This document shows, in pieces, positions 6,184 through 62,788 of a stretch of DNA of 64,000 bases. How positions within the stretch are numbered: position 1 is the stretch's first letter; each line of letters opens with the position of its first letter. The translations under genes were made by a program, and so were the position numbers. Under the pieces are notes generated by a model that was not told the origin of the DNA, searched no databases, and saw only the letters and a program-made list of their open reading frames with translations. This DNA comes from a virus. The stretch covers positions 32,001-96,000 of the IMG/VR virus record IMGVR_UViG_3300032294_002706; one strand, 5' to 3'.

Positions 6184-7149
6184 ATGATGGAACCTATTTT
6201 ACAAGAGAATCCAAATCGATTTGTTGTCTTCCCGATTCAGCACCATGACCTGTGGGAATTTTACAAAAAATCAGAAGCTTCATTCTGGACAGCTGAGGAA
6301 ATTGATCTAGCTGCTGACCTAGTTGACTGGCGATCTCGATTAAACGATGACGAGCGTCATTTCGTTAAACACGTATTGGCATTTTTTGCCGCAAGCGACG
6401 GTATCGTTAATGAGAATCTTGCCGAGAACTTCGTTAAAGAGGTCCAGTACCCGGAAGCAAAATTCTTTTATGGATTTCAGATCATGATGGAAAATATTCA
6501 TTCTGAAACCTATTCTCTTCTAATTGATACGTACATCACCGACCCAGAAGAAAAAATGCATCTATTTAGAGCAATTGATACTATCCCAGCCGTTGCAAAG
6601 AAGGCCGAGTGGGCCCTTAGATGGATCAAGAACTCTACATTTCAAGAGAGACTAATTGCATTTGCGGCGGTTGAAGGTATATTCTTCTCAGGTTCATTCT
6701 GTTCTATTTTTTGGCTTAAGAAAAGAGGCCTCATGCCAGGACTAAGTTTTTCTAATGAACTTATTTCACGAGATGAAGGTTCTCATACTGACTTTGCAGT
6801 CCACCTACACAACAACCATGTAGTTAATAAAGTTTCAGAAGAAAGAATAAAAGAAATCATATTATCCGCCCTAGAAATTGAAAAAGAATTCATCATAGAG
6901 GCTCTTCCTATTAAATTAATAGGCATGAATTCTGACTTAATGAAACAATACTTGGAATTTGTTACCGATAGATTACTATCTGATTTAGGTTGCTCAAAAG
7001 TTTTTAATTCAACCAATCCCTTTGATTTCATGGTTAACATTGCGCTAAATGGCAAAACTAATTTCTTTGAGAAAAGAGTTGGTGAATACCAAAAAGCTGG
7101 AGTTAAATCTGGAGGAGACGCAGGATTTTCATTAGACGCAGATTTTTAA
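6184..7149 (+). CDS. nrdB: Ribonucleotide reductase class Ia beta subunit
   Basis: [39 protein letters not shown] and SRDEGSH di-iron/tyrosyl-radical motifs. Confidence 0.97.
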
Positions 7150-7170
7150 AAAACAGCAAAAACTAAATAA

Positions 7171-9591
7171 ATGAAGGTAATAAAAAGAGATGGCCATAGT
7201 GAAACGCTAAAGCTTGATAAAATCACGAACCGAATTAAAAAACAAACATACGGATTAAATACTGACTACGTTGACGCCCTAGAGGTTGCAACCAAAGTAG
7301 TGTCCGGAATTTACGATGGAATAAGCACGCAGCAACTCGACCTATTAGCGGCAGAAACTGCAGCGGCTTTGACGTATATTCATCCAGATTATTCAATTCT
7401 TGCCGCTAGAATTGCGATAACTCGCTTACACAAAACTACTCATAAATCTTTTAGTGATACGATTGATCACTTATACAATTACATAGATCCAAAGACTGGT
7501 AAGAATGCCTGCATTATCTCAGATGAGACTTATGAAGCTGTTCAAAAGTACAAGAACACACTAAATGAAGCAATCATTCACGATAGAGATCTTAATTTTG
7601 ACTATTTTGGGTTTAAGACTCTTGAAAAAAGTTACCTATTAAAAACTCACGGCCAACCTGCTGAAACTCCTCAGCATCTTTACATGAGAGTTGCCGTTGG
7701 TATTTGGGGAATGGACATTCAAAATGTTTTAAAAACGTATGAATTACTATCCACTCATCAAATGACTCATGCGACTCCAACTCTATTTAATGCTGGAACA
7801 AGAAGACCTCAGCTTTCTTCATGTTTTTTATTAATGATGGATGAGGATTCTATTTCTGGAATCTATAAAACTCTTTCTGATGTTGCTGCCATTTCTCAAA
7901 ATGCTGGAGGTATTGGTATAGCTGTCTCAAACATTAGAGCGACCGGTTCTTACATTAAAGGTACAAATGGTACCTCAAACGGAATCGTTCCAATGTTAAA
8001 GGTTTACAATGAAACTGCTAGATACGTTGATCAAGGTGGTGGAAAACGTAAGGGCTCTTTTGCAGTTTATTTGGAACCATGGCATGATGATGTTGAAGAT
8101 TTTCTTGATCTTAGAAAAAATCACGGTAAGGAAGAGCGCAGAGCAAGAGATCTTTTCTTAGCAATGTGGACTCCTGACTTGTTCATGAAACGCGTTGAAG
8201 AGGATGGAGATTGGACGACTTTCTGCCCAGCCGAAATCGACTGTGAACTTTGGGAAATGTACGGAGAAGAATTCGAAAGTAATTATGTTCGCCTTGAAGC
8301 AGAGGGTAAGGGTCGTAGAACCTTTAAAGCTCGTGTACTATGGCAAAAAATTCTAGAGTCTCAAATTGAAACAGGTACGCCATACATTCTTTTTAAGGAT
8401 TCTGCAAATCGCAAATCAAACCAAAAGAACTTAGGCACAATTAAATCTTCTAACTTATGTACGGAGATTATTGAGTACACATCAAAGGATGAACAAGCTG
8501 TTTGTAACTTAGCCTCAATTCCAGTAAATCAATTTGTTGTCTTAGGTAAGAAAGCCGGTAAATTAAGAAAGCCTACTGCTGAATATAATTATAATGCTCT
8601 ATACGAAGTTGCATATCAAACTACGCTTAACTTAAACAAGGTAATTGACGTCAATTTTTATCCAACTCCTGAGACCAAAAACTCTAATCTAAAACACCGT
8701 CCAATTGGAATAGGCGTTCAAGGTTTAGCAGATACGTTTGCTCTAATGGGATTAGAATTTGGAAATGAAGAGTCTAAAAAATTGAATGAGGAAATCCATG
8801 AAACCATTTATTATGCAGCAATGGACGCCTCAATTGACTTAGCTAAAAGAGATGGAGCGTATTCTTCTTATGAAGGTTCTCCATTAAGCACTGGCCAATT
8901 TCAATTCAATTTATGGGGATTTACTGATGAACAATTGTCAGGCCTCTGGGATTGGGCAGCCTTGCGTAAGAAGTTAATGAAACACGGTGCTAGAAATTCC
9001 CTATTGCTTGCTCCAATGCCAACCGCGTCAACTGCTCAAATCATGGGTAATAATGAAGCGTTTGAGGCATTTACCTCAAATATCGGAACTCGTAGAACTT
9101 TAGCTGGTGAATTCATAACCGTCAATAAACATCTAGTTAGAGACCTTGCTGAACTTGGCCTTTGGTCAGATTCAATGAGAAATCGAATCATCGTAGAAAA
9201 AGGATCAATTCAAAATATTCCTAATATCCCGGATGAGCTTAAACTAATTTATAAAACGGTTTGGGAAATATCTCAAAAGACGATCATTGATATGTCAGCT
9301 GACCGAGGTAAATTCATTTGTCAATCTCAGTCCCTTAACCTCTTTTTTAGAGATGTTAATACTGCCAAATTGACCTCAGCTCATTTCCATTCTTGGAAAA
9401 GAGGACTTAAGACCGGCATGTATTACTTAAGAACTGAAGCTGCTACTTCAGCAATTGCTGGACTGGGAGTAGATGCCTCTACTAAATCACAGCCTGTCAT
9501 CCAGATTGCACAAGGAGAGGCTTTGCAGAACGCAAATGATATAGTCTGTTCTCTTGATAACACGGATGAATGCCTAGCTTGCGGGTCATAA
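7171..9591 (+). CDS. nrdA: Ribonucleotide reductase class Ia alpha subunit with N-terminal ATP cone
   Basis: VIKRDG ATP cone, TPTLFNAG, SSCFL, SNLCTEI, CNLAS, LKTGMYYLR and C-terminal CLACGS. Confidence 0.97.
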   Translation: MKVIKRDGHSETLKLDKITNRIKKQTYGLNTDYVDALEVATKVVSGIYDGISTQQLDLLAAETAAALTYIHPDYSILAARIAITRLHKTTHKSFSDTIDHLYNYIDPKTGKNACIISDETYEAVQKYKNTLNEAIIHDRDLNFDYFGFKTLEKSYLLKTHGQPAETPQHLYMRVAVGIWGMDIQNVLKTYELLSTHQMTHATPTLFNAGTRRPQLSSCFLLMMDEDSISGIYKTLSDVAAISQNAGGIGIAVSNIRATGSYIKGTNGTSNGIVPMLKVYNETARYVDQGGGKRKGSFAVYLEPWHDDVEDFLDLRKNHGKEERRARDLFLAMWTPDLFMKRVEEDGDWTTFCPAEIDCELWEMYGEEFESNYVRLEAEGKGRRTFKARVLWQKILESQIETGTPYILFKDSANRKSNQKNLGTIKSSNLCTEIIEYTSKDEQAVCNLASIPVNQFVVLGKKAGKLRKPTAEYNYNALYEVAYQTTLNLNKVIDVNFYPTPETKNSNLKHRPIGIGVQGLADTFALMGLEFGNEESKKLNEEIHETIYYAAMDASIDLAKRDGAYSSYEGSPLSTGQFQFNLWGFTDEQLSGLWDWAALRKKLMKHGARNSLLLAPMPTASTAQIMGNNEAFEAFTSNIGTRRTLAGEFITVNKHLVRDLAELGLWSDSMRNRIIVEKGSIQNIPNIPDELKLIYKTVWEISQKTIIDMSADRGKFICQSQSLNLFFRDVNTAKLTSAHFHSWKRGLKTGMYYLRTEAATSAIAGLGVDASTKSQPVIQIAQGEALQNANDIVCSLDNTDECLACGS

Positions 9592-10988: not shown

Positions 10989-11180
10989 ATGACACCACAA
11001 TGGTTAACTGAATTAAAAGAAGCAGTTTCTCAACTTGAAAATGAAACTGTGAAGTTCTACGAAAAGGGTAATAAATCTGCTGGAACTAGAACTCGTAAAC
11101 TTTTGCAAGATATTAAAGCAGTTTGTCAAGCCGGCAGAACTCACGTTCAAGAAGCAAAGACTAACGAGCCAAACGCTTAA
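10989..11180 (+). CDS. Histone H1-like (Hc1 family) small DNA-binding protein
   Basis: 63 aa with FYEKGNKSAGTRTRK, matching the KGNKAAGTRARK signature. Has its own promoter and terminator. Confidence 0.8.
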   Translation: MTPQWLTELKEAVSQLENETVKFYEKGNKSAGTRTRKLLQDIKAVCQAGRTHVQEAKTNEPNA

Positions 11181-12658: not shown

Positions 12659-13768
12659 ATGAATTTAATCATTGATGGAAATGCCTTTCTTAACGTAGCA
12701 GTTAGCATAGCCAAGAATATCTTAGCTAATGACAAACGAGTGGGCGAAAAGTATTACGTCTCTGATCTGTTGAATGACGATAAATTCATGCTTAAACAGG
12801 CAAGTAAGGATACTTTCAGGGCTTTTTCAGTAAACTACCTTGGAAGTATTCTTGCTCCGTTTAAGGAAAATATCAGTTCTGTATTTTTTGTATTCGACTC
12901 TAAAAGTTGGAGAAAGAAATACATCAAGGAACACTTTGAGGCTCACGGCGACGGAGATTTCTCTTACAAAGGACAACGTAAGTATGACGATAAAATTTAT
13001 CTCTTTTTTGAATACTTCCAAACAGAAATCTTAAACACAATTTCTGAAGAATACGGAATTGTTGTTAACCGGGTTCCTGGAGCGGAAGGTGATGATTTAA
13101 TTGCATACATTTGCGAAAATCTAAGAGAAGATATTTGTATTTGGTCAGTCGACAAGGATTTAACACAGTTGCTTGAAAGCAACAAGCGTAAAGTAATCCT
13201 AATAATGCCAAAGCAGATGACTAAGTACAAAAAGATCTACACTACTGAAGATTTTGGTCAGGTCCAAGAGGCTGAGATTGATCTATTCAATTTTAACATT
13301 GAATCAATCGATAATTCAGCAATAGTTAACATAATTAACGATTTGACCCAAAAAGATTATAAACATCTAACGGTTGATCCAACACTAGACATTCTAACTA
13401 AATGTTTAGGTGGAGATTCCTCAGATAATATTCCAAGAGTTCATCCAAAAATGACTCCAGCTAAGGTAACTAAGATCATTGATTACTTACGTGAATCGTA
13501 TAACTGGAAAGAGATCACTCCTCTAATTGATTCAGGTGATCAAGGTTTCATTGATATTTTACGTGAAGTTACATGTGAAGTTCTAAAGATAAAGGAACCT
13601 GGTGAATGGCAGACGATCGAGAATAACCTTAATCGTAATAAGACACTAATTCGTTTAAGCACTGCAGTTTTTCCAACTGACGTATTAGAATCGATCAAGC
13701 AAAGCGTTGACTTAACAGTAAGACGTAAGTTTAATTATTACAAATTTAAAAAAAATTATAAGAACTAA
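12659..13768 (+). CDS. rnh: T4 RNase H-like 5'-3' exonuclease / flap endonuclease
   Basis: LIIDGN, FVFDSKSWRK, YKGQR, EGDDLI, SVDKDLTQL, GGDSSDNIP. Confidence 0.9.
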   Translation: MNLIIDGNAFLNVAVSIAKNILANDKRVGEKYYVSDLLNDDKFMLKQASKDTFRAFSVNYLGSILAPFKENISSVFFVFDSKSWRKKYIKEHFEAHGDGDFSYKGQRKYDDKIYLFFEYFQTEILNTISEEYGIVVNRVPGAEGDDLIAYICENLREDICIWSVDKDLTQLLESNKRKVILIMPKQMTKYKKIYTTEDFGQVQEAEIDLFNFNIESIDNSAIVNIINDLTQKDYKHLTVDPTLDILTKCLGGDSSDNIPRVHPKMTPAKVTKIIDYLRESYNWKEITPLIDSGDQGFIDILREVTCEVLKIKEPGEWQTIENNLNRNKTLIRLSTAVFPTDVLESIKQSVDLTVRRKFNYYKFKKNYKN

Positions 13769-14100
13769 TGAGCATAGACGTTCAACAAGGATTTATTCCA
13801 CTATTCGAAAGACTCTTAATTCTACCGGATAGCGTAGAAGTAAAAACTGAGACCGGCATTCTACTTTCAGTAGATGCACGCAAACGTCCCAATACTGGCA
13901 AAGTCGTTGGCCTAGGTCACCTAGTCGCAGACAACTCAAAATGTCCAGTTAAAGTTGGTGATAGAGTTCTTTACCAAAGATACTCAGGACTTGACGTAAA
14001 ATGGGATAGTCAAAACTATCATCTAGTAATGGCAAACGATCTCTTAGCCATAATCAATAAGGATCAAGAAACACAATTTGAATTAAATGAGCAATCTTAA
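13768..14100 (+). CDS. groES: Co-chaperonin GroES
   Basis: PLFERLLI, KTETGILL, GKVVGLG, VKVGDRVLYQRYSG, DLLAII. Confidence 0.92.
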   Translation: MSIDVQQGFIPLFERLLILPDSVEVKTETGILLSVDARKRPNTGKVVGLGHLVADNSKCPVKVGDRVLYQRYSGLDVKWDSQNYHLVMANDLLAIINKDQETQFELNEQS

Positions 14101-14686
14101 AAGTTTCACGCAATTCGTGAACGAAGAAAAATCAAACGACTTTAGGATCTTTTGTGATCTTGACGGAGTCCTAGTTGATTTTAATAGAGGATTCATTGAG
14201 CTTGCCAGTAATACTGAAAAACTTTCGCCAAAAGCCTATGAAAAGGCTCACGGTAAAGATTCGCTATGGCCGCTAATCGATGAATTGGGAGAATCCTTCT
14301 GGGAAAATCTACAATGGATGAAGGACGGTAGAGAACTATGGGATTATCTTAAGAGATATGATCCAATAATTCTGTCTTCTCCAAGTAAACACCCAGGCTG
14401 TTTTACCGGAAAGGCTAAATGGGTAAAGCTTCATTTAGGAATTGACCAAGATCCAGTAACAGACCCTCAAAATTTTACAAAGGACACCCGATTTATCTTA
14501 GCTAATCGCAAGCACGATTACGTTGAGCCTGCAAAAACTCTATTTAAAAAGAAACCTCTGTTAATCGATGATTTCAATAAAAAACTAGAAAAATGGACTA
14601 ATGCTGGAGGAATTGGAGTTTTACATAACGATTCGACTGATACAATTCGAGTGGTTGAGGAAATTCTAGGCCCAGCTGAAGACTAA
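14087..14686 (+). CDS. HAD-family 5'(3')-deoxyribonucleotidase-like protein
   Basis: IFCDLDGVLVDF, ILSSP, LLIDD, W..AGGIGVLH; N-terminal extension MSNLKSFTQFVNEE. Confidence 0.85.
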   Translation: MSNLKSFTQFVNEEKSNDFRIFCDLDGVLVDFNRGFIELASNTEKLSPKAYEKAHGKDSLWPLIDELGESFWENLQWMKDGRELWDYLKRYDPIILSSPSKHPGCFTGKAKWVKLHLGIDQDPVTDPQNFTKDTRFILANRKHDYVEPAKTLFKKKPLLIDDFNKKLEKWTNAGGIGVLHNDSTDTIRVVEEILGPAED

Positions 14687-18046: not shown

Positions 18047-18526
18047 ATGGCAAATACAGACAATTCCTGCGCAAAATTAGAAATTAATGACCTTTGGTCA
18101 AATCGTACAGAATCCAACACGGACACTCTTGGCGACATTATGAACTTACAAGCCGATACTCAAAAGAATGTTTACGGTTATGACTTCAAAAACATGACTC
18201 TACGTGACCTAATGACATTTTGGCACATGAATAATCATGCAATGATTGATGAGATTCACGAAGCAACCGATGCACTAGGCGGAATCAAGGACGGGGACGG
18301 CAATGCCATCTGGAAAAGATGGAAAAAAGCCCATGAAGGATACTCAGATAAGAAATTCTCAGATTTATCAGAGGAAGACCAACTAGAGTGCAAATTTGAG
18401 GTGATTGACATGCTACACTTCTTTATGAATTACGCAATTTCGATAGGAATGACTCCTCAGGAGATGTACAATATGTACATGTCTAAAAACGAAGAGAACC
18501 GAGCACGTCAACAGAATGGTTATTAA
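18047..18526 (+). CDS. All-alpha dimeric dUTPase / T4 gp56-like dCTPase-dUTPase
   Basis: DEIHE, WKRWK, EVIDMLHF and C-terminal YMSKNEENRARQQNGY. Confidence 0.85.
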   Translation: MANTDNSCAKLEINDLWSNRTESNTDTLGDIMNLQADTQKNVYGYDFKNMTLRDLMTFWHMNNHAMIDEIHEATDALGGIKDGDGNAIWKRWKKAHEGYSDKKFSDLSEEDQLECKFEVIDMLHFFMNYAISIGMTPQEMYNMYMSKNEENRARQQNGY

Positions 18527-18544: not shown

Positions 18545-19918
18545 ATGATTGTAAGTACTGAATTTCACACGGAAGACTCAACGCTAGTCATTTCGTATTA
18601 TAAGCCAGATGGAACAATTGGATTTATGAAAAAACCAATTCTACCTCATGACCTTTATAACTGGAACCTAACTCCAACTCCGACCGAGCACCGTAACTGG
18701 GATGGAAAATTTCTAAAAAAGGTTCAAGGTAAATGGTTGAGTCGTTTTAGACTTGAAGAATTGACCCAAATTCGATTAGATCAAACTGAGTTAGATTCAA
18801 TTTATTCAGATGATAGTCCAAAAAAATACTATCTGGATATTGAGATTCAGTTATTATCAACCGACTTTCCGGATCCAAACAAAGCAGCAATGCCAGTTAA
18901 TTTAATAACGTTTGTGAATGAGGATAATATTTGTTTTGTAATGTCAACCATGAAGAACTTAGAGAATCCAGTAATTTCTCAAATGCAAGATGAGGTTAAC
19001 GATTACTTTAAGGCACACGGCCAAGACTTTACTCTTAAGTATCTGTTTTTTGAGACAGAGGAAGAGATGATGACAACCTTTTTCCACAAAGTGCTTCCTA
19101 AAATTCCATTCTTAACCGGTTGGAATGTAATTGGATTTGACTGGTTATACTTAATCAATCGTTGTAAGAATTTAGGAATTGAGCCAATGGCAAAAATGCC
19201 ATCTAAAACATTGATCGGTAAGGCTAAAATGCCAGTTCACATGGGACTTCTGGATTACATGGAAGTTTTCATGAACACAAAGCCGTATAAGGTCGTTGAG
19301 AATTATAAGTTAGACTACATCGCTAATCTTGTGCTTGGAACCACTAAATTACATAGTGAGTATGCGACCATGCTAGAAGCTCAGCAGGACGTTGAGAACT
19401 TCATCAAGTATAACATCATCGATACGATTCTTATCAAGCTAATAGAGGACAAGCTTGGTCTACTTGATGTAGCCTTTGCCATCTCTAAATTTGCGAGAGT
19501 CGATGTTTCTAAAGTATTTTCAGCAGTATTCATTACTGAAACCTTAATGTGTAGAGAATTCTTAGAACGCGGTTTATACATGGCAAACGATCGAAGAGAT
19601 CTTGAAGAGGACGCAACTTACGATGGTGCATACGTTGCAAAACCTGAACCTGGATACTATAAGTACGTATCATGTTTTGACTTTGCCTCAATGTATCCAA
19701 ACATTCAAATTCAGTTTAATATCTCGCCAGACGCGTACTTAGGCAAAAACAAACCTGATCAAGAACCTACTGAAGGCCAGATCCTAACTAAAAACAATAC
19801 TCTATTTACTAAAAAGTTTGATTCAGCAGCTCGCACAATCTTAACTCGTTTGTATAACGGTCGTGTGGACACGAAGAATGAAATGAAAAAATTAGAAGAG
19901 CAACTAAATGCTAAATAA
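18545..19918 (+). CDS. Family B DNA polymerase, N-terminal half (3'-5' exonuclease plus motif A) of a split polymerase
   Basis: ExoI YYLDIEI, ExoII GWNVIGFDWLYL, ExoIII YNIIDT and motif A FDFASMYPNI. The ORF ends before KxxxNSxYG and YGDTDS. Confidence 0.9.
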   Translation: MIVSTEFHTEDSTLVISYYKPDGTIGFMKKPILPHDLYNWNLTPTPTEHRNWDGKFLKKVQGKWLSRFRLEELTQIRLDQTELDSIYSDDSPKKYYLDIEIQLLSTDFPDPNKAAMPVNLITFVNEDNICFVMSTMKNLENPVISQMQDEVNDYFKAHGQDFTLKYLFFETEEEMMTTFFHKVLPKIPFLTGWNVIGFDWLYLINRCKNLGIEPMAKMPSKTLIGKAKMPVHMGLLDYMEVFMNTKPYKVVENYKLDYIANLVLGTTKLHSEYATMLEAQQDVENFIKYNIIDTILIKLIEDKLGLLDVAFAISKFARVDVSKVFSAVFITETLMCREFLERGLYMANDRRDLEEDATYDGAYVAKPEPGYYKYVSCFDFASMYPNIQIQFNISPDAYLGKNKPDQEPTEGQILTKNNTLFTKKFDSAARTILTRLYNGRVDTKNEMKKLEEQLNAK

Positions 19919-28216: not shown

Positions 28217-28243
28217 AACCTTTTTTCATTTTCTTAGTATTAT
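28217..28243 (+). promoter_or_regulatory. Putative early/middle promoter AACC-N17-TATTAT
   Basis: Variant of the recurring motif. Confidence 0.55.
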
Positions 28244-28268: not shown

Positions 28269-29162
28269 ATGATTACATTTACAGGGCTCACTTTTGCACA
28301 AGCATATAAGCATTCAATAGAGTATCTATTGGCTAATGGCATGGTTAACAATGCTAGGGGCACAACAAGTAAAGAATTGCTTGATGTTGCAATAGTGGTT
28401 GAGGATCCGACTCAGTGTCTATATGATAATGAAGTTAGAGGTTCTCAGCAAAAATATATTGCTGCCGAATTTTTATGGTACTATGCTGGTCGAAATGATG
28501 TTGCTTTCATTTCAAAATGGGCAAAGTTCTGGGAAACCATTCAAAACCCAGACGGCACTGCGAATTCAGCATACGGAAACCTGATCTTTAATGAGAAGAA
28601 CCAATACGGCCTTACTCAATATCAATGGGCAATTCAAAGTTTAATGAATGATTCTAGCACAAGACAAGCAATTCTTCATTTTAATAAACCTTCTCATCAA
28701 TATTTGACCAATAAGGATTTCGTATGTACAATGTACGCAAATCTACATATTCGCCAAAATAAGTTATACATGAGCGTCTACATGAGAAGTAATGATGCAA
28801 TTTGGGGTACTTCGACCGATGTTGCCTTCTTTTGTTCGTTACAAATGCAGATTCATGCTCATCTAAAGGAAATTTATCCAGATCTTGAACTTGGGACCTA
28901 CACTCATGTTGCAAATTCATATCACGTTTACGATAGGCATTACGATCTAGCGCAAAGAATGATTAATTCAGACTTTATCCCGGTCAAATTACCTTCAATT
29001 ACGACTGATTTGATAGACATAGACGGTTCGTCAAGTCAAGATTTTAATATTGTATTTGCAGCATCTACTGGCCAGACTGATGAACTTGTGTTATTTCAAC
29101 AAGATAACGATCTTTTGAAATGGATTTTTGAAAAATTAAAAGAGGATAAGAATGTCATTTAA
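28269..29162 (+). CDS. Thymidylate-synthase-superfamily enzyme, T4 gp42 (dCMP hydroxymethylase)-like
   Basis: NSAYG, TRQA, DFVCT, MRSNDAIWGTSTD (Asp at the base-specificity position) and SYHVYDRH. Confidence 0.8.
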   Translation: MITFTGLTFAQAYKHSIEYLLANGMVNNARGTTSKELLDVAIVVEDPTQCLYDNEVRGSQQKYIAAEFLWYYAGRNDVAFISKWAKFWETIQNPDGTANSAYGNLIFNEKNQYGLTQYQWAIQSLMNDSSTRQAILHFNKPSHQYLTNKDFVCTMYANLHIRQNKLYMSVYMRSNDAIWGTSTDVAFFCSLQMQIHAHLKEIYPDLELGTYTHVANSYHVYDRHYDLAQRMINSDFIPVKLPSITTDLIDIDGSSSQDFNIVFAASTGQTDELVLFQQDNDLLKWIFEKLKEDKNVI

Positions 29163-29625
29163 TTCAGTTAGCACACAGCGTCAACACCTAATAGATGTTA
29201 CCTACATCAAGATGGCCCAAACTTGGTCAGGTCTTTCTCATGCGATCCGTAAAAAAGTTGGAGCCCTAATCGTAAAGAACAATACAATCATTGCTGATGG
29301 GTATAATGGCACTCCTTCCGGTTTTGAAAATGAATGTGAGATTGCAATAAGCCATGAGGATGGTTCATTCAAGGAATATCAAACTAAATGGTACGTTTTA
29401 CATGCAGAATCTAATGCACTTGCAAAGGTTGCCAAATCAACACAAAGTAGCGACGGGGCTACTCTTTATATTACCTACTCTCCATGCACAGATTGCAGCA
29501 AATTAATTTTACAGGCAGGAATCAAGCGAGTTGTGTATTTAGAAGAATACCGAGATATCGCCGGCCTTGACTTCTTAAGAAGAGCTGGCGTTGAAGTTAA
29601 AAAAATCGACCCAGAAACACTATGA
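29152..29625 (+). CDS. dCMP deaminase
   Basis: KVGALIV, GYNGTPSG, HAESNA and SPCTDC zinc motifs. Confidence 0.95.
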   Translation: MSFNSVSTQRQHLIDVTYIKMAQTWSGLSHAIRKKVGALIVKNNTIIADGYNGTPSGFENECEIAISHEDGSFKEYQTKWYVLHAESNALAKVAKSTQSSDGATLYITYSPCTDCSKLILQAGIKRVVYLEEYRDIAGLDFLRRAGVEVKKIDPETL

Positions 29626-30023
29626 TCGATTCATTAGAAAGAAAGCTTGAAATCGTTTTCGTAAGAGATCAAAAACAATTCATTCAAGCTTTTAATAAAA
29701 AGCAGAAGTGCGATTATTTACTAAATGTGAATAAAATAATAAAGGAAAAGTTCGATCACGAAATTCTTGTGCCGAACAAAATCCAAGCGTTCCTAATAAA
29801 TTATGAAATTAAGAAATTAATTGACAAAGCGATTAATGTTAGGAATCGTAAATACAATCGAATAATCTACGTTAATGCTGGTCTCAGCGTTAGTAACATC
29901 AATAATACTGTCAAGTTTCTGAATACTGCATACGGAACAATTGAATTCGTTCCTAGCTTAATAGACGGAGATTTTGAAATTGGCGAACTTACTGGAGTAG
30001 AGACAATAAAAAAGGGGCATTAA
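29622..30023 (+). CDS. Hypothetical protein
   Basis: 133-aa ORF with ATGA overlap to the preceding gene. Confidence 0.65.
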   Translation: MIDSLERKLEIVFVRDQKQFIQAFNKKQKCDYLLNVNKIIKEKFDHEILVPNKIQAFLINYEIKKLIDKAINVRNRKYNRIIYVNAGLSVSNINNTVKFLNTAYGTIEFVPSLIDGDFEIGELTGVETIKKGH

Positions 30024-30033
30024 GCCCCTTTTA
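30008..30033. terminator. Bidirectional terminator at the junction of the + and - operons
   Basis: AAAAAAGGGGC-ATTAA-GCCCCTTTT. Confidence 0.8.
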
Positions 30034-38492: not shown

Positions 38493-39386
38493 TTATTTAT
38501 TAAAGTCGAGTAGCAAGTCTTTTAAAATCTGTAGTTTTTCTTCACTAATTTTTGAAAAATCCGGTTTGGTCACAATTATCTTGAATACGTAATTGCCCCT
38601 ATTGCCGAAGGCTGAAACCAGTCCCTGATTGGGTATTCTGACAGTAATGTCATTAAGGGTGTCCCGATTAAAGGATTTTATTCGATATTTCTTACCTAGC
38701 CGACTCTCTAGTAGAGTCTCTTCATTAAATAGCACATCGTGTAATGACAGTTCAATTCGTTGAACGATATCACTTTGATCAATTGCAAGTTCTAATAGAT
38801 CAATGTTTACTCTAACAATTAGATCTCCGGTTGCTAACATTTTTCTGGCCCTGCCAAAGAAATCAGTTTCATTTATCTCTTGTACGGAACCTCCGCCCCT
38901 AATCTTTAGCAGAATACAGTATCTGCCATTTTCAAAGGTGATAGGATAGCCGTTCTCTGCTAGGTTTACCGATACCTTTACGTTCTTCATTTCGGAGCTT
39001 TTTGAACCTCCTACCTCTTTGGTAATGGAATACTGAACATCAAATGAAGTTCCTTCCATTAATTCTTTAATTGATGCCCATTTATCGACAGTGTGAGTTA
39101 GATTCTTTAGATTAGACCTGTGTCCGCCAAATGAAAAATCCTGAAAACTGTCATAGAAGTTATTATGATGGCCGCGTGGACCACGACTTGCATCGTATGT
39201 CTTACGTTTAGCTGCATTACCTAGAGTTTCGTATGCTTCTGCAATCTCTTTGAACTTATCCTCAGATTCCTTGCTTCCTCCATTTTTGTCAGGATGGTGT
39301 TCGGTCACAAGCTTACGATATGCCTTTTTGATTTCCTCTTGAGAAGCAGTTTCTGCAACTCCTAACGTTTCATAATAATTTTTCAA
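38493..39386 (-). CDS. dnaJ: DnaJ-like co-chaperone (J domain, no zinc finger)
   Basis: [32 protein letters not shown]; C-terminal GDLIV/RGNYV. Confidence 0.9.
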
Positions 39387-39477: not shown

Positions 39478-41514
39478 GTGAAAACAGTATTATTTACCTA
39501 CTATGCCAATCCGGCACAAGACATTTTTCTAGAAAACGTTGAATCACTACTTAAAAATAGTGCATGTGAATATGACGAAATTGTTATTTGTTCTCAGATA
39601 GACGTACCAGTTAAAATAATAAAGGCCTTGTCAAAGCACGCAATAGTAAGCCGAGTTTTTCCGGATCACAATGCACAACAAGCAAAAAGATCATCCAATC
39701 CAAATCGTTCTTATAAAGTCAGCCCATTCATGCTAACTGCTCTATCTTATAAGGAATCGATAGTTACTGTTTTTGATTCTCAGTTATTCGTGATTAGCCC
39801 AATAGCTAATTATTCAGGCAATAATATCTTTTATAAGAACCACCGAGGAGCATTAATCACGCAGCTTTTTACAATCGTTAATACCGAATCAACTGCCAAT
39901 CTATTAATAAAGAGTTTAATTGACTGTGATTTCACAGATGATTCAACTAGCCATAAATTCACATTCATTATCGCAAACGCTGTACCGTTCAATACTGCAA
40001 CTATTTACGACAAGGCGTTCATATTCAGCGATCCTTCCGAGCATGATGTTATAAATGAGGATAAGCTAATTGCGTTTGACCTATCAGAGACAATGACCTC
40101 GTCCATGATACATAAGCAGATGTGGGCCATTCGAAAAACCTACATTCCAAAAGTTTCAACCCTAACTAAAATTGCAAATCATGCAAATTCAATAGTTTCA
40201 ACGGCAGTCGCCGCGATTCAAGAGGTTGAAATGCCATTCACAAAGACCGGCAGTCATGATCCAGTAATATTATTCAAATACACTTCAAGGAGTCGACCTG
40301 ATCAGTTTTATCGAGGTTTGATTAGTATCATCAATAAATGTTCAAGTCCAAACTATTTAATATTGTGTAGTTTCGATCATAACGATCCAGCATTACCTAC
40401 TTATTTAGAATACATCAAGGATTTGAATGATGACCGACTCACAGTCTGTTTAGGAGATAGTAAAAGCAAAATTGACGCAATAAATAGAGATATTAATACA
40501 TACGATAAGCATTGGGATATTGTTGTTAACATGTCAGACGATATGATTTTCACAAAGAATGGATTTGACTTAATAATAAAAAGCGATTTCATTCAATACT
40601 TTCCAAAGTTTGATGGGGTAATGCACTATCCTGATCAAGATGCCGGCGAAAAATTAATGACTCTATCGATACTAGGTAGAAATTATTATCTTCGATTCAA
40701 TTACATATACCATCCAGACTATTCATCTCTATGGTGTGATAACGAAGCAATGGAAGTATCAATAATGCTTGGAAAATATCGATACTCTTCGGTCCGAATG
40801 TTCGATCACATTCACCCAGCATACGGCCATTGTCAAACTGACGAGCAATATAAACACACTGAATCTTTTTACCACGCAGATAATGCGGTGTACTTACAGA
40901 GAAAGGCTAGAGGTTTTAAATTAAAGTTTGCAATATTAATTGCAACAATTGAGACCCGAAAACCTCAGTTTGAAAAACTAAGAAGTTTCTTACAATCTCA
41001 AATAGTTAAAAATTCTCTAGTTGGTCAATGCGAAATAGTCCACATTAGTGATAACAAGGAGATCTCAGTTGGATTAAAAAGACAACGCCTATTGGAAATA
41101 GCCAATAGTAATTACGTTGCATTCATAGACGATGATGATTGGGTTAGCGATGATTACTTACCAATGATCATAAATTCAATAGATTCAAATTCACCAGATT
41201 CAATTGGATTTTTAATTAGATGCACATTTGACAGATCTTCGCCAATCATGGCAAAAGCCTCAAACAAATATGCAGATTGGGCAGAAGACATTGACGGATA
41301 CAAGTACGTTAGAACACCTTATCACAAAACTCCAATCAGGAGAGACCTCGCCATTCAAATAGGATTTAAAGACATTCGATATGCTGAAGATCACGATTAC
41401 AGTCGTAGATTAAAAGCTGCAGGTCTAATAAGAAAAGAAGATTTTATCGACTCTCCTCTCTACTATTATAGTTATGTACATGAGAATCCAAATACAAAAT
41501 ACGGTTTAAAATAA
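39478..41514 (+). CDS. Multi-domain GT-A glycosyltransferase (two GT2-like domains plus a degenerate N-terminal GT-like domain)
   Basis: FKYTSRSRP...VNMSDDM...WCDNE; ILIATIETR...YVAFIDDDD...AEDHDY. Confidence 0.85.
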   Translation: MKTVLFTYYANPAQDIFLENVESLLKNSACEYDEIVICSQIDVPVKIIKALSKHAIVSRVFPDHNAQQAKRSSNPNRSYKVSPFMLTALSYKESIVTVFDSQLFVISPIANYSGNNIFYKNHRGALITQLFTIVNTESTANLLIKSLIDCDFTDDSTSHKFTFIIANAVPFNTATIYDKAFIFSDPSEHDVINEDKLIAFDLSETMTSSMIHKQMWAIRKTYIPKVSTLTKIANHANSIVSTAVAAIQEVEMPFTKTGSHDPVILFKYTSRSRPDQFYRGLISIINKCSSPNYLILCSFDHNDPALPTYLEYIKDLNDDRLTVCLGDSKSKIDAINRDINTYDKHWDIVVNMSDDMIFTKNGFDLIIKSDFIQYFPKFDGVMHYPDQDAGEKLMTLSILGRNYYLRFNYIYHPDYSSLWCDNEAMEVSIMLGKYRYSSVRMFDHIHPAYGHCQTDEQYKHTESFYHADNAVYLQRKARGFKLKFAILIATIETRKPQFEKLRSFLQSQIVKNSLVGQCEIVHISDNKEISVGLKRQRLLEIANSNYVAFIDDDDWVSDDYLPMIINSIDSNSPDSIGFLIRCTFDRSSPIMAKASNKYADWAEDIDGYKYVRTPYHKTPIRRDLAIQIGFKDIRYAEDHDYSRRLKAAGLIRKEDFIDSPLYYYSYVHENPNTKYGLK

Positions 41515-41517
41515 AAA

Positions 41518-42195
41518 ATGGAAGCAAGTAAAGTTAAAGTTTGCATACTAAATGCATCGAACGGAACAGGCTGGTATCCAGTAGGATCACATAGACTTAA
41601 AAGATCATTAATCCATCATGGATATGCTCATGATCTTTTATTTTTCAATAATTGGCCAAACAATGAGTTTGATAAAATGTGTCCTTATAATATAAAAGCA
41701 GCCGCCTTTGCTGAGGCCTTGAAGAAGGACTACGATATTATATTATGGGCAGATTGCTCGGTATGGGCAATTGACTATCCGTATCCGGTTCTAGACATAA
41801 TAAATCATGACGGCTATTACTTTTGGAGATCTGGATATACATGCGATCAAACTTGTTCAGATGCATGCCTAGATTATTTTGGAGTCGACAGAGATACTGC
41901 CGAGACTTATCAAGATGTTTCAACTTCCCTATTTGGAATCCATACAAAAAACGAACTTGGAGCAAGATTCATTAATGAATGGCTACAGTCAGCAAAGGAC
42001 GGCCAATTTAAAGGATCTAGAGAACACGACGGTCAGTCTAAAGATCCTAGATTTCTATTCCACCGCCAAGATCAATCATGTGCAAGCCTTATCGCGAATA
42101 AGCTTGGGCTAAAGATTCACAATGAAGGCGATCACATTCAATATTACAAGAAAAAACAACCCGACAATCTCATATTCACAATGAGAGGTCTTTAA
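41518..42195 (+). CDS. Putative glycosyltransferase (GT-A-like)
   Basis: YNIKAAAF, ILWADCS (DxD-like), HRQDQS. Confidence 0.65.
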   Translation: MEASKVKVCILNASNGTGWYPVGSHRLKRSLIHHGYAHDLLFFNNWPNNEFDKMCPYNIKAAAFAEALKKDYDIILWADCSVWAIDYPYPVLDIINHDGYYFWRSGYTCDQTCSDACLDYFGVDRDTAETYQDVSTSLFGIHTKNELGARFINEWLQSAKDGQFKGSREHDGQSKDPRFLFHRQDQSCASLIANKLGLKIHNEGDHIQYYKKKQPDNLIFTMRGL

Positions 42196-42208
42196 AAAAC
42201 TCAAATTT

Positions 42209-42832
42209 ATGTATTCACAAAACGACGAAGAAACAATTCTTTTACAACACCTAACTTTACCAACTGGCACGTTGCTTGATATTGGAGCAAATGACGGAAA
42301 AACTCTCTCAAATTCATTAGCTTTAATCGAAAGAGGCTGGTCTGCTGCCTTGGTTGAACCTGCCAAAATTCCATTTTCAAAATTAGTGGAGTTACATAAA
42401 GACAATCAAAATGTCCAGTGTATTAATTTAGCGATAGGAACTCAAATCGGCGAACTCAAATTTTACTCTAGCGGTACTCACCTGAAAGCCGGCGACACTG
42501 ATCTTCTTTCAACTCTGTGTGAATCGGAATTGGATCGATGGGCCGGTACCGACAATGAATTTACTGAAGAGACAGTATCCGTTGTCGATTTTAAAACATT
42601 CTTAGACCATTCTAATTTCAAGAAATTCGATCTGGTCTTGATTGATGCAGAAGGCCTTGATTATGAGATTCTAACTCAGATCGACCTTAATCAAATTGAG
42701 TGTTCAATGATTGTGGTTGAGACGAACAGCAAGGATGATGCTAAGTACATCAAGTATTGTGAATCATTCGGTTTTAAACAAATTCATAAGACTTACGAAA
42801 ACTTAATTTTTTCAAAAAATCAAAATTCGTAA
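42209..42832 (+). CDS. FkbM-family SAM-dependent methyltransferase
   Basis: YSQNDEE, LDIGANDG..LSNS, LVEP, LIDAEGLDYEIL. Confidence 0.9.
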   Translation: MYSQNDEETILLQHLTLPTGTLLDIGANDGKTLSNSLALIERGWSAALVEPAKIPFSKLVELHKDNQNVQCINLAIGTQIGELKFYSSGTHLKAGDTDLLSTLCESELDRWAGTDNEFTEETVSVVDFKTFLDHSNFKKFDLVLIDAEGLDYEILTQIDLNQIECSMIVVETNSKDDAKYIKYCESFGFKQIHKTYENLIFSKNQNS

Positions 42833-43615
42833 ATGGCTCACTTGGACATAACAGCCGGCACAGGCTTTTTTTCATGCTCAACTGAAGCTCTGTTAAATTT
42901 GGTAATTTACTCATCACTAAATGGGAGAATTCCAAATTCAATCGATCGTAGTAAACAATACGAGTATCATAAGAGCGATTCTATTACTGACCTGATTCCA
43001 TATTACTTTGAAGAATCAGCTGAGCCTTTTGATGTCCCTCAAGGAGTTCAAATAAATTCAGACGGAGTCTATTCTCAATTCTGCGATTATCGAACGATCC
43101 AATTCGATGCAATGAAGGCCTACTTACTAAAGTACTTTCAGCCAAGTAAGAGAGTCAAGAATCGTGAGTCGGAGTTCATTCGTAATTACGAAATTTCTCC
43201 TGAAAATACTTGCGCTATTTTCTATAGAGGAAACGATAAATCTAGAGAAACTACTATCGCCAACTACTCTGAATTTATTGCACAGGCTAAAATAGTCAAA
43301 ACTGAAAATCCGACAATTGAATTCCTAGTTCAAACTGACGAAACTGAATTTCTTGAACTATTTTTAAGAGAGTTCCCTGATGCTAAGTACATATCTGAAA
43401 TTCCAAGAATTTCTAAGCAGGACAATTGGGTTACTCAAACTCTAAATAGAGATTCTCGTCCAGATTTCGGAGTAGACTTCTTTAGTTCAGTTTTAATACT
43501 CGCAAAGTGCAAATCTCTCATAACTCACTCCGGGAATTGCGGATTTTGGAGCGTTCTTTATAGAGGCTCGTTCGATGGAGTACGCCAATGGCAAAATGAT
43601 CATTGGATAATTTAA
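42833..43615 (+). CDS. Fucosyltransferase-like GT-B protein (NodZ/GT23/GT11-like)
   Basis: GFFS, IFYRGNDK, FLVQTD, ILAKCKSLI..SGNCGFW. Confidence 0.7.
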   Translation: MAHLDITAGTGFFSCSTEALLNLVIYSSLNGRIPNSIDRSKQYEYHKSDSITDLIPYYFEESAEPFDVPQGVQINSDGVYSQFCDYRTIQFDAMKAYLLKYFQPSKRVKNRESEFIRNYEISPENTCAIFYRGNDKSRETTIANYSEFIAQAKIVKTENPTIEFLVQTDETEFLELFLREFPDAKYISEIPRISKQDNWVTQTLNRDSRPDFGVDFFSSVLILAKCKSLITHSGNCGFWSVLYRGSFDGVRQWQNDHWII

Positions 43616-43628
43616 AAAATTTATTATT

Positions 43629-44480
43629 ATGAAATTAGCAGTAGGTTACGTAGTTTTTGATGGGCTTGAAACGCTAGAAGCCTCAATTCGATCAATCCGA
43701 GAATGTGTTGATATTGTGATCGTCTCTTATCAGACGGTATCATGGGGAAATACTCAGTGTTCTCCATTGTTGGTGCCCACACTAGAGAGGCTCAAGGAGA
43801 ATGGGCTAGTTGATGTAATAATGGAATTCACAAAATTCGTCCCATCATCTCTGACTAAACCAGACGATGTGATCCGCGCTAAAAAATACGAATGTGATAA
43901 GAGACAGAGCTGTTTAGATAAAGCTCTTGAACTTGGAGCAACTCATTATACTTCAATGGACGCTGATGAGTTCTATATCAAGGAACAGTTTGAGGAGGCG
44001 AAACGCCAAATCATACAAGATAAGTTACAGGCAACTGCCGTTCGTTACATAAACTACTTGACTCCAACTCTACATCAGGGCTATTCTAAATTCAAGGTGC
44101 CTTTCATTTACGAGATTGGGCCAAACAGTCGACATCATGCACTACAGTTCATGTTCTCAGATATCGATCCAACTCGCGGAATCACCGATGATTCGTACAC
44201 CAGATCTAGAGTTTTTGAACGTGACTTGATAACGATGCATCACATGGAAATGGTTAGGGAAGACCTACTTGGAAAGTACCAAGCCTCAAGCCGATACTTT
44301 AGAAATAGACAGGACCTTCCAATCTTGGCTGAAGATATTATTCATGCCAAGAAAACCAAGGAACTTAAGTTTAGAGCAATTCATTTTGGTGATTCGCTAA
44401 GCGGTTTAAATAAGGAATTAGTATTGACTGAATGCGAAGATCTTTTCGACTTACATTCCTACCGTTACGGTACCCGATAA
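43629..44480 (+). CDS. Putative glycosyltransferase (GT2-like)
   Basis: LEASIRSIRECVDIVIV, ECDKRQ, SMDADEFY, MHHMEMVR. Confidence 0.75.
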   Translation: MKLAVGYVVFDGLETLEASIRSIRECVDIVIVSYQTVSWGNTQCSPLLVPTLERLKENGLVDVIMEFTKFVPSSLTKPDDVIRAKKYECDKRQSCLDKALELGATHYTSMDADEFYIKEQFEEAKRQIIQDKLQATAVRYINYLTPTLHQGYSKFKVPFIYEIGPNSRHHALQFMFSDIDPTRGITDDSYTRSRVFERDLITMHHMEMVREDLLGKYQASSRYFRNRQDLPILAEDIIHAKKTKELKFRAIHFGDSLSGLNKELVLTECEDLFDLHSYRYGTR

Positions 44481-61652: not shown

Positions 61653-62261
61653 TTATTTATTAGGCTCAATGCCCAATAGCTTGCAGCATTCGTTATTAAA
61701 TGAAACTACTGATGTTTCATCAAAGTGATTGAAAACGAAACTTAGTCCGTTATTTTTAGTAGTATCCGAAAGGCCTCTTAGCCCGGACTCTATTAAGTTA
61801 GCCATTAACTGTTGTTCTTCAACCGTTGAGTGAGTGCCGTCCCAAGTGTCTTTGACTCTGCTTGAATCGCCAGTTTGACCAGCGACTGACACGACCAGAG
61901 TTTTGGAATTTTTATAGAGATCCGAGCTTACAAGCTTAAGAAACTCAAGCTCAGCTCGACTTCGACCCAGTCGCTTTCTCAGTATTGCCCAAGTATAAGC
62001 AGATATGATAGCTCTGTCAAATATCCAAATTTTATCCTTGTATTCGGGTCGTAAGTTCATTTCCATAATGGTCATGATGTTACCTAAACTGAAATAGTGT
62101 AGTGCAGGAGTTGCATCAAGATCAACAAGATCAAGTGCCTTTACGTGATTCGCAAAATAGAACTTATAGTACTCGATTCTTGGATCCTTGTGAGTTTCAA
62201 TGAATTGATTAATTAGGAACGTTTTGCCTGATCCCCTGGCGCCTTCTATTATTAGTAGCAT
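61653..62261 (-). CDS. Thymidylate/dNMP-kinase-like P-loop kinase
   Basis: MLLIIEGARGSGKT...WIFDRAIISAYTW; ATG 62261 preferred as start. Confidence 0.75.
   Translation of the reverse strand: MLLIIEGARGSGKTFLINQFIETHKDPRIEYYKFYFANHVKALDLVDLDATPALHYFSLGNIMTIMEMNLRPEYKDKIWIFDRAIISAYTWAILRKRLGRSRAELEFLKLVSSDLYKNSKTLVVSVAGQTGDSSRVKDTWDGTHSTVEEQQLMANLIESGLRGLSDTTKNNGLSFVFNHFDETSVVSFNNECCKLLGIEPNK
61654..61661 (-). promoter_or_regulatory. Late promoter motif AATAAATA
   Basis: 6 nt upstream of ATG 61647. Confidence 0.5.
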
Positions 62262-62788
62262 AATAATTTTAATCTTTCTACTTTTGAAAATTTTTCTAGG
62301 GATCTTGCTGAATCCCAATCTATTTTAATTATTGTGCTCTTATCGACAAAAATGAAATCGACAGTAGCATTTAGTTCAGTATATAAAAAGTAAGAGGTGT
62401 ACTTAATGATTTCCCAAAGAGAATCCTCAAATATCGTAATTGAGTCAGCTTCAGTAGTTTCTACCAATTCAATGACGGTCTCAGCCTTATCGCTTTCTCT
62501 TCCCAAGAAATAGGTTTTATCGAACCTAATATTATACTCAGAAAGTAGATCCAGAACAGCTGATTCGCAAGCTTTAACTCGATGAGTTATCAAGTAGTTA
62601 AGACAATTGTCTCCAGTTCTGTCAATTGTGTTTGAGATTCCTCTAATGTTGAACTTTTTTGAGAGTGATTCCGGCGAATCGAACCATTGATAGGGTTCCA
62701 TGCCCTTAGCTTCACCGCATGTGTAACCTGGCACCCTAAATAAGGTTTCATCAAAATCAAATATGTTAATGTGTGGTCCGTTTTCCAT
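62252..62788 (-). CDS. HAD-family phosphatase
   Basis: IFDFDETLF, LITHR, DKAE, IFEDS. Confidence 0.8.
   Translation of the reverse strand: MENGPHINIFDFDETLFRVPGYTCGEAKGMEPYQWFDSPESLSKKFNIRGISNTIDRTGDNCLNYLITHRVKACESAVLDLLSEYNIRFDKTYFLGRESDKAETVIELVETTEADSITIFEDSLWEIIKYTSYFLYTELNATVDFIFVDKSTIIKIDWDSARSLEKFSKVERLKLLCY

Follow-up and report, generated by a model that had tools for sequence, protein, structure and literature searches.

The window analysed here is a stretch of 64,000 nucleotides (nt) that corresponds to bases 32001-96000 of a linear IMG/VR viral contig of 129,692 bases, with a CheckV completeness of 48%. Two overlapping genes located in it code for a 297-amino-acid (aa) enzyme with the thymidylate synthase fold (28269..29162, + strand), predicted from its match to Pfam family PF00303, its residue signature and its fold to be a deoxycytidine monophosphate (dCMP) hydroxymethylase, that is, a 5-hydroxymethyl-dCMP (5hmdCMP) synthase, and for a 157-aa zinc-dependent dCMP deaminase of the type of T4 cd and the cyanophage S-TIM5 enzyme (29152..29625, + strand; PF00383, PHROG 174). 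We propose, with a probability that we set at about 0.7, that both proteins take part in a T4-style nucleotide pool pathway by which 5-hydroxymethylcytosine (5hmC) would replace cytosine in the DNA, the deaminase feeding deoxyuridine monophosphate (dUMP) to a separate thymidylate synthase, ThyA. The proposal, which comprises a predicted product, a predicted deaminase substrate and a predicted DNA composition, builds on the observed fold, catalytic and specificity residues, gene order and presence of partner genes. The system is a new example of a known T4-type pathway, and not a new route to thymidine.

The family matches of the two open reading frames (ORFs) are not chance resemblance. The hydroxymethylase ORF matches PF00303 (Thymidylat_synt) with an E value of 8.2e-21 (74.8 bits, the cut-off being 24.3) and its PHROG label is thymidylate synthase; the deaminase ORF matches PF00383, the zinc-binding family of dCMP/cytidine deaminases, with an E value of 4.6e-22. 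Upon searching the PDB sequences with phmmer, the best matches of the former were the cytidine monophosphate (CMP) hydroxymethylase MilA (6.3e-20) and the T4 dCMP hydroxymethylase gp42 (1.9e-14), the best true thymidylate synthase being found at 2.5e-10 and the E. coli ThyA entries at about 2e-6. The AlphaFold (AF2) model of the protein has a predicted local distance difference test score (pLDDT) of 96.7 and a predicted template modelling score (pTM) of 0.94. Its top Foldseek match is MilA over the whole length (template modelling score 0.79-0.81, about 305 columns), followed by T4 dCMP hydroxymethylase and ThyA over the core. As MilA matches the whole length and the latter two only the core, we liken the C-terminal extension of about 60 residues, which T4 gp42 lacks, to the extra region of MilA.

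We aligned the query with E. coli ThyA, T4 gp42, RB69 gp48 and the enzyme of phage PaMx74, all of them taken from public records. Because RSNDAIWGTSTD of the query aligns with RSCDVFLGLPFN of E. coli ThyA and with RSNDVVFGFRND of T4 gp42, Asp184 occupies the position of ThyA Asn177. The preliminary description of this DNA had read an Asp at the ThyA Asn site, and a likeness to T4 gp42 in NSAYG and DFVCT; the alignment bears out both, the two motifs being placed opposite NSNYG and DFMCT of the T4 protein. Cys153 aligns with the catalytic Cys146 of E. coli ThyA, and Asp150, Thr154, Asp176, Asp184, Ser174 and Arg132 are the further key residues. Fourteen active-site positions were compared, which in ThyA numbering are 58, 80, 94, 143, 146, 147, 166, 167, 168, 169, 173, 177, 207 and 209. 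The query reads there E W Y D C T R S N D G D H Y, and T4 gp42 reads E W Y D C T R S N D G D H Y as well, so that they are identical at 14 of 14 positions; E. coli ThyA reads E W Y L C H R S C D G N H Y, the PaMx74 enzyme E W Y N C P R S S D G D H Y and RB69 gp48 E A Y E C T R S Q N V D H F. When the residues within 6 Å of C5 listed by Lee et al. (2026) are taken, query and T4 gp42 share 11 of 12.

Three publications provide rules by which these residues can be read. Asn or Asp at position 177 goes with selection of dUMP or dCMP, respectively, and viral contigs with and without modification can be told apart by positions 147 and 177 (eLife 2021, PMC8670742). A bulky hydrophobic residue at position 143 is associated with a methyl product and Asp or Glu with a hydroxymethyl product, and Asn169 is the mark of flavin-dependent 5-hydroxy-dCMP synthases (Lee et al., 2026, Nucleic Acids Research, NAR, PMC13326640). 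The ribonucleotide preference of MilA is ascribed to Ala176 and Lys133'; enzymes specific for deoxyribose carry Ser and Arg instead (PMC5175136). With its Asp143, Thr147, Asp169 and Asp177 (ThyA numbering), the query agrees with the hydroxymethyl rules. Since the residues at 143, 147, 169 and 177 and the Ser/Arg pair (Ser174 and Arg132) all fit, we predict the protein to be a deoxycytidylate hydroxymethylase; the thymidylate synthase fold with its catalytic Cys, the Asp at 177 and the acidic residue at 143 are those of such an enzyme.

The same residues characterize the family, for which one search gave 590 proteins and a second one 2,793 cluster representatives, both counted at E ≤1e-10. The residues were tallied in proteins of 200-420 aa, with 13 of 269 dropped for length. 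Of 120 close homologs, 118 carry the signature Asp143-Cys146-Thr147-Asp169-Asp177, as do 128 of 136 distant representatives, and Asp177 by itself is found in 120/120 and 134/136; among the 256 aligned members, Asp169 is kept in every one, and the deoxyribose-type residues Ser167 and Arg126 in 256 and 255, respectively. Two of the 136 distant representatives (among P0121-P0269) keep Asp143, Thr147 and Asp169 but have Asn177, a pattern that would be expected of dUMP hydroxymethylases within the broad clade. In a quick maximum-likelihood tree of 60 rows, the deepest split, supported at 99%, leaves E. coli ThyA, the ThyA proteins of the relatives described below and the PaMx74 enzyme on one side, and the query family, T4 gp42 and RB69 gp48 on the other. 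Taking together the active site identical to that of T4 gp42, the lack of Asn169, the separation from ThyA and PaMx74 in the tree and the deoxyribose-type Ser/Arg pair, the predicted product is 5hmdCMP.

A second component of a T4-type pathway is encoded about 10 kb upstream of the hydroxymethylase gene. The gene at 18047..18526 (+ strand) codes for a 159-aa all-alpha nucleoside triphosphate (NTP) pyrophosphohydrolase, which by its kinship to T4 gp56 and its match to PHROG 173 (2.8e-17) is predicted to act as a dCTPase/dUTPase. The gp56-like pyrophosphatase that had been noted there holds: the protein is 34% identical to T4 gp56 over 126 aa (E 2e-25; phmmer 2.1e-24), the likeness taking in the C-terminal KN..N..RQ.NGY stretch, and it is 86% identical to its homolog in a complete relative (G001, see below). 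It has no clear sequence match in the PDB and no similarity to the pyrophosphohydrolase of PaMx74. Hydroxymethylase signature and gp56-like dCTPase together indicate cytosine replacement. Of the three base modifications that had been envisaged genome-wide, namely hydroxymethyl-, methyl- or hydroxycytosine, the first is retained on these grounds; the Asp at 143 and the split in the tree speak against the second, and the retention of Asp169 against the third.

In phage T4, gp56 converts dCTP to dCMP, gp42 converts dCMP to 5hmdCMP, cd converts dCMP to dUMP, and td converts dUMP to deoxythymidine monophosphate (dTMP). In the phage studied here, the gp56-like pyrophosphatase would likewise produce dCMP from dCTP. 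The 28269-29162 enzyme would then use methylene-tetrahydrofolate as the donor of a methylene group for C5 of dCMP and hydrate that group to yield 5hmdCMP, which would be phosphorylated and built into DNA instead of cytosine. The coupled deaminase would turn another share of the dCMP pool into dUMP, to be converted to dTMP by a separate phage ThyA, a protein that is seen in complete relatives. The likeness to T4 comprises the fold, the active site, the gp56 homolog, a cd homolog with 37% identity, and the ThyA of the relatives. The differences are the low sequence similarity to gp42, the C-terminal extension, the gene placement and the lack of some T4 homologs.

Regarding gene placement, hydroxymethylase and deaminase genes are about 106 kb apart in T4, whereas here the two ORFs, both on the + strand and with the deaminase gene intact, overlap by 11 nt, in line with the overlap that had been noted for this locus. 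A Shine-Dalgarno-like AAGAGGA box precedes the deaminase ATG, and the deaminase gene is, as judged from this layout, translationally coupled to the hydroxymethylase gene. The deaminase stop codon overlaps in turn, as ATGA, with the start of a third gene of the operon (29622..30023, + strand). A strong bidirectional terminator-like hairpin (30010..30032), whose 9-bp stem includes 5 GC pairs and which has a run of T on each strand, closes the operon. Overlapping and co-terminated genes would fix the ratio of hydroxymethylase to deaminase at the dCMP branch point, which might suit a genome of about 36-40% G+C that needs more thymidine than cytosine-type nucleotide.

The arrangement is conserved. 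In IMG/VR, 277 of 280 candidate stretches encode a relative of the hydroxymethylase, and 80 related loci with hydroxymethylase identities of 61-97% were kept for the analysis. The deaminase gene comes next on the same strand (gap -7 to +42 nt), followed by the third gene, in all 78 loci with at least 480 nt downstream; the remaining two end too early to show the deaminase. Upstream, gp47, a 166-aa ORF and gp46 are present wherever the locus reaches, apart from 11 loci without a match to the 166-aa ORF. A promoter scan yielded fewer sigma-70-type sequences than expected (16 vs 24). The motif TAnnTTTG, which we take to be the Bacteroidota-type -7 consensus, occurs at 28241, upstream of the hydroxymethylase gene; as its count in the window (74) is close to the expectation (72), we give it no weight.

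The third gene codes for a 133-aa protein that matches no Pfam or PHROG family. Its AF2 model (pLDDT 87.9) adopts a P-loop-kinase-like fold, for which VIA-align gives a Z score of 9.3 against a fungal RNA kinase and of 9.0 against T4 polynucleotide kinase, the Foldseek E value being 7e-3 at best; the sequence has no Walker A motif after the first strand.

We next consider the source of thymidylate. The preliminary description had suggested that 5-methyl-dCMP could be deaminated to dTMP as a ThyA-independent route, and had proposed a search for another thyA or thyX. The contig, which covers about half of the genome, contains a single PF00303 match and no ThyX. Five larger relatives were searched as well: G001 (271 kb, with terminal repeats, 100% complete), G002 (253 kb, 93%), G003 (253 kb, 94%), G004 (217 kb, 84%) and G005 (180 kb, 67%; hydroxymethylase 96% identical). 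ThyX is absent from all five. A second PF00303 gene (E 8e-64 to 2e-87) is present in G001 to G004 and not in G005, that is, in 4 of 5 relatives and in 3 of 3 of those at least 90% complete. The second genes read from G001 and G003 encode canonical ThyA, with LPPCH, RSVDTFLGLPFN and a C-terminal KAPLSN. These ThyA proteins are 380-388 aa long in G003 and G001 (L091, 1297-2439, - strand; L094, 1486-2652, + strand), compared with 264 aa in E. coli; the reading frame stays open throughout, but internal insertions break the Pfam match up into two or three segments.

In G001 the ThyA gene is located at 230 kb, about 122 kb away from the hydroxymethylase gene, and the genes shared with the contig (105 of 314 ORFs) all lie within 42-166 kb. 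None of 24 ORFs flanking ThyA in four relatives is matched in the contig. For both reasons we place the ThyA neighbourhood outside the contig. Most simply, ThyA would be present in this lineage too, in a part of the genome to which the contig does not extend. As the relatives encode canonical ThyA, the deaminase most likely supplies dUMP to it, as in T4. With a canonical ThyA in most of the larger relatives and no methylase-type signature in the query, the ThyA-independent route finds no support in this phage. The idea itself is already in print, because a preprint (bioRxiv 10.1101/2024.12.05.627091) proposes that deamination of 5-methyldeoxycytidine nucleotides supplies thymidine nucleotides to 5-methylcytosine (5mC) phages without a second thymidylate synthase. 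According to the same source, 104 of 149 deaminases encoded on modified contigs have a thymidylate synthase homolog no farther than 3 kb away, 85% of these homologs being predicted makers of 5-hydroxymethyldeoxycytidine or 5-methyldeoxycytidine. In the phage studied here, a deaminase gene placed right beside that of a cytosine-type thymidylate synthase homolog is no sign of a ThyA bypass; to distinguish such cases, the residue rules in the literature and the complete genomes of relatives suffice.

The deaminase shows the zinc and catalytic motifs of its family together with a clear likeness to solved dCMP deaminases. It matches PHROG 174 (dCMP deaminase) at 1.7e-49 and, in the PDB, the 138-residue deoxycytidylate deaminase 4p9c, which we take to be the cyanophage S-TIM5 enzyme, at 1.4e-38, followed by T4 cd (3.8e-24); by BLASTP it is 37% identical to T4 cd and 31% to the PaMx74 deaminase. 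HAE (His84-Ala85-Glu86) and PCxxC (Pro111-Cys112...Cys115) are invariant in 44 distinct sequences from the related loci. Its substrate is predicted, by this kinship, to be dCMP.

Several points weigh against the T4-style pathway. Both the contig and its closest relative, G005, show no ThyA, for which incompleteness is the likely cause. The product of this subfamily is a prediction, the residue rules come from few characterised enzymes, and the methyl-type comparison uses one sequence, that of PaMx74. The tree is derived from a quick search, and its T4 and RB69 branches are long. Some deaminases adjoining genes of this kind act on 5-substituted cytosine nucleotides, and in the 5mC phage PaMx74 the genes for a pyrophosphohydrolase, a thymidylate synthase homolog and a deaminase follow one another in the same order. 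Finally, a phmmer search with a set of T4 proteins (E limit 10 in the contig and 0.01 in G001) matched only the gp56 and cd homologs: no homolog of gp1, frd (dihydrofolate reductase), beta-glucosyltransferase, DenA or Alc was found in the contig or in G001, nor was there a phmmer match in either to the thymidylate-kinase-like ORF of RB69 or to frd of PaMx74. As no deoxynucleoside monophosphate (dNMP) kinase of the T4 gp1 type was found, the step from 5hmdCMP to the diphosphate has weak candidates only.

One of them is the 221-aa P-loop protein encoded at 61653..62318 (- strand), a weak candidate for a nucleotide or nucleoside kinase. A gene in this region had been described as dNMP-kinase-like: the P-loop, with its Walker A motif, and a weak match to the deoxynucleoside kinase 6ybh (E 0.005) stand, whereas similarity to T4 gp1 does not (E 1.5). 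Its ESM Atlas neighbours are viral proteins labelled hypothetical, one neighbour cluster having PF02223 on 12% of its members, and the ORF is kept in G001 with 78% identity. G001 also has an ORF that is guanylate-kinase-like.

It is unlikely that the deaminase acts on 5hmdCMP or its triphosphate and not on dCMP, in which case 5-hydroxymethyldeoxyuridine nucleotides would be made too and the DNA would contain both 5hmC and 5-hydroxymethyluracil or derivatives thereof; conceivably it accepts such substrates alongside dCMP. This explanation draws on the tight coupling kept in all 78 loci, on a deaminase that is more conserved than the hydroxymethylase, and on the report by Yang et al. (2024, bioRxiv 10.1101/2024.12.05.627091) that 7 of 90 deaminases adjoining a thymidylate synthase homolog gave 5-hydroxymethyldeoxyuridine in vivo; for those seven, five of the partner enzymes make 5-methyl-dCMP. 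However, the normal ThyA of the complete relatives needs dUMP, the nearest kin of the protein are ordinary dCMP deaminases, and that preprint describes the preference for modified cytosine as polyphyletic and as not predictable from sequence.

It is very unlikely that the enzyme methylates dCMP and that the deaminase turns part of the resulting 5-methyl-dCMP into dTMP, which would give 5mC-containing DNA and a ThyA-free route. The Asp177 is shared with dCMP methylases of the Xp12 (Xanthomonas phage) and PaMx74 (Pseudomonas phage) type, PaMx74 provides the parallel in gene order, and the contig contains neither a second thymidylate synthase nor ThyX. Against this, the residue at 143 is acidic (Asp150), as in hydroxymethylases, where PaMx74 has Asn143, along with Pro147, and the PaMx74 enzyme groups with ThyA at 99% support, apart from the query family; its pyrophosphohydrolase is unrelated and its deaminase distant, and the ThyA of 4 of 5 larger relatives lies in a neighbourhood beyond the contig. 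The MetaGPA pairs (Yang et al., 2021, eLife; 2024, bioRxiv) resemble the present locus in that an Asp177 homolog occurs at most 3 kb from a dCMP deaminase, with an NTP pyrophosphohydrolase near, on viral contigs. They differ in that the pairs tested are mostly 5-methyl-dCMP producers with 5mC-selecting deaminases, whereas here a hydroxymethylase signature is found, and ThyA in relatives.

A flavin-dependent 5-hydroxy-dCMP synthase of the RB69 gp48/DLP3 gp80 type, with the sugar genes glycosylating 5-hydroxycytosine, is highly improbable. The thymidylate synthase fold, Asp177 and an acidic residue at 143 are shared with that group (Lee et al., 2026, NAR), and sugar-nucleotide and glycosyltransferase genes are present in the window; yet the diagnostic Asn169 is absent, Asp (Asp176) being kept there in the query and throughout the aligned family, and RB69 gp48 differs also at positions 80, 168, 173 and 209. 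Least credible of all is a MilA-like ribonucleotide hydroxymethylase or an ordinary dUMP-methylating thymidylate synthase: MilA (Streptomyces rimofaciens; PDB 5jnh, 5b6d), which likewise has Asp143 and Asp177, comes first in both the sequence and the full-length fold comparison, C-terminal extension included, and databases label the family thymidylate synthase, but MilA belongs to an antibiotic pathway and prefers ribonucleotides through its Ala/Lys pair, which in this phage protein is Ser and Arg; Asn177, His147 and Leu143 of ThyA are all replaced, by Asp, Thr and Asp; the best NCBIfam ThyA equivalog model scores 54.4 bits, far below its cut-off of 327; and relatives carry a separate true ThyA.

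The locus adds a large, widespread and uncultured clade of T4-like phages to the viruses predicted to swap cytosine for 5hmC. Many restriction enzymes fail to cut DNA of the 5hmC type, and sequencing or cloning of such phages can be biased by it. Anyone looking for new enzymes could reasonably turn to the MilA-like subfamily and to the small, conserved kinase-fold protein.

Whether sugars are attached to the DNA was considered from the genes around the operon, among which several glycosyltransferases had been announced. PHROG and Pfam scans found one 678-aa protein with two glycosyltransferase-like regions (39478-41511), which has no PDB sequence match, an FkbM methyltransferase (42209-42829) and nucleotide-sugar enzymes, namely a DegT-type aminotransferase (57185-58477) and an RmlD/epimerase-like protein (58477-59745), an epimerase/dehydratase gene being located further along the contig. 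No homolog of the T4 beta-glucosyltransferase was found by phmmer in the contig or in G001 (the alpha-glucosyltransferase of T4 was not among the queries). G001 is collinear with the contig, yet most sugar genes are missing from it or replaced (islands 39478-44480 and 57185-59748): the double glycosyltransferase is 37% identical to a G001 protein over 228 aa only, and four of its neighbours and both amino-sugar genes have no homolog there. Kept in G001 are the gp56-like, hydroxymethylase, deaminase, 133-aa and P-loop ORFs. It has other glycosyltransferase and methyltransferase genes, beside a collagen-repeat protein. The variable islands could decorate virion proteins and could equally, by analogy with the T-even phages, diversify a sugar on the DNA. 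A more specific scheme seems doubtful to us, in which the GT2-type glycosyltransferases, the FkbM methyltransferase and the DegT/RmlD-type amino-sugar pathway of the islands would put lineage-specific sugars on 5hmC in the DNA, with the 133-aa kinase-fold protein as a new third component of the module.

With respect to its origin, the DNA belongs to an uncultured phage of the T4 superfamily, the complete relatives of which have genomes of about 250-270 kb. The scans of 132 crude ORF calls with PHROG and Pfam identify a distant T4-superfamily myovirus with a gp23-type capsid protein, a gp20-type portal and a tail sheath. It also has UvsX, gp46/gp47, a DnaB-type helicase, a class Ia ribonucleotide reductase, GroEL/GroES, DnaJ and a ClpB-like ATPase. 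The region has no megablast match in a phage collection and no close phage record; the best tblastn match is an uncultured 462-kb phage with 47% identity. A literature search on this phage clade returned nothing relevant. The host is probably a member of the Bacteroidota, as hinted by a G001 protein that has a type IX secretion sorting domain.

Other genes of nucleotide metabolism in the window are those for the small and large subunits of the class Ia ribonucleotide reductase (6184..9591, + strand; PF00268 2e-111, PF02867 1.5e-204), which supply deoxynucleotides, and for an HAD-type 5'-deoxyribonucleotidase-like protein (14087..14686, + strand; PHROG 2643 at 1.6e-23, with a weak NT5C match of 0.019). 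The family-B DNA polymerase is split into genes that lie far apart. One ORF codes for the 3'-5' exonuclease and two others for the N-terminal and the C-terminal part, the latter about 47 kb downstream of the former; the pieces are found at 18545-19918 of the window and, outside it, at contig positions 29945-30688 and 99282-101513. An unusual set of host-like proteins for a phage, comprising an Hc1 histone-H1-like protein, GroES, a DnaJ-domain protein and GroEL, is encoded at window positions 10989-11180, 13768-14100 and 38493-39386 and contig positions 30705-32288, with the ClpB-like ATPase outside the window. The complete relative G001 (loci L101-L115) codes moreover for SmpB, ClpP, topoisomerase II subunits, several sigma factors, the repair enzymes Fpg, UvdE and HhH-GPD and, along with the protein bearing the type IX secretion sorting domain, a Tad6-like Thoeris inhibitor. 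Near the right end of the contig, outside the window (118866-128596), there are two GIY-YIG homing-endonuclease-like ORFs and a tyrosine integrase gene.

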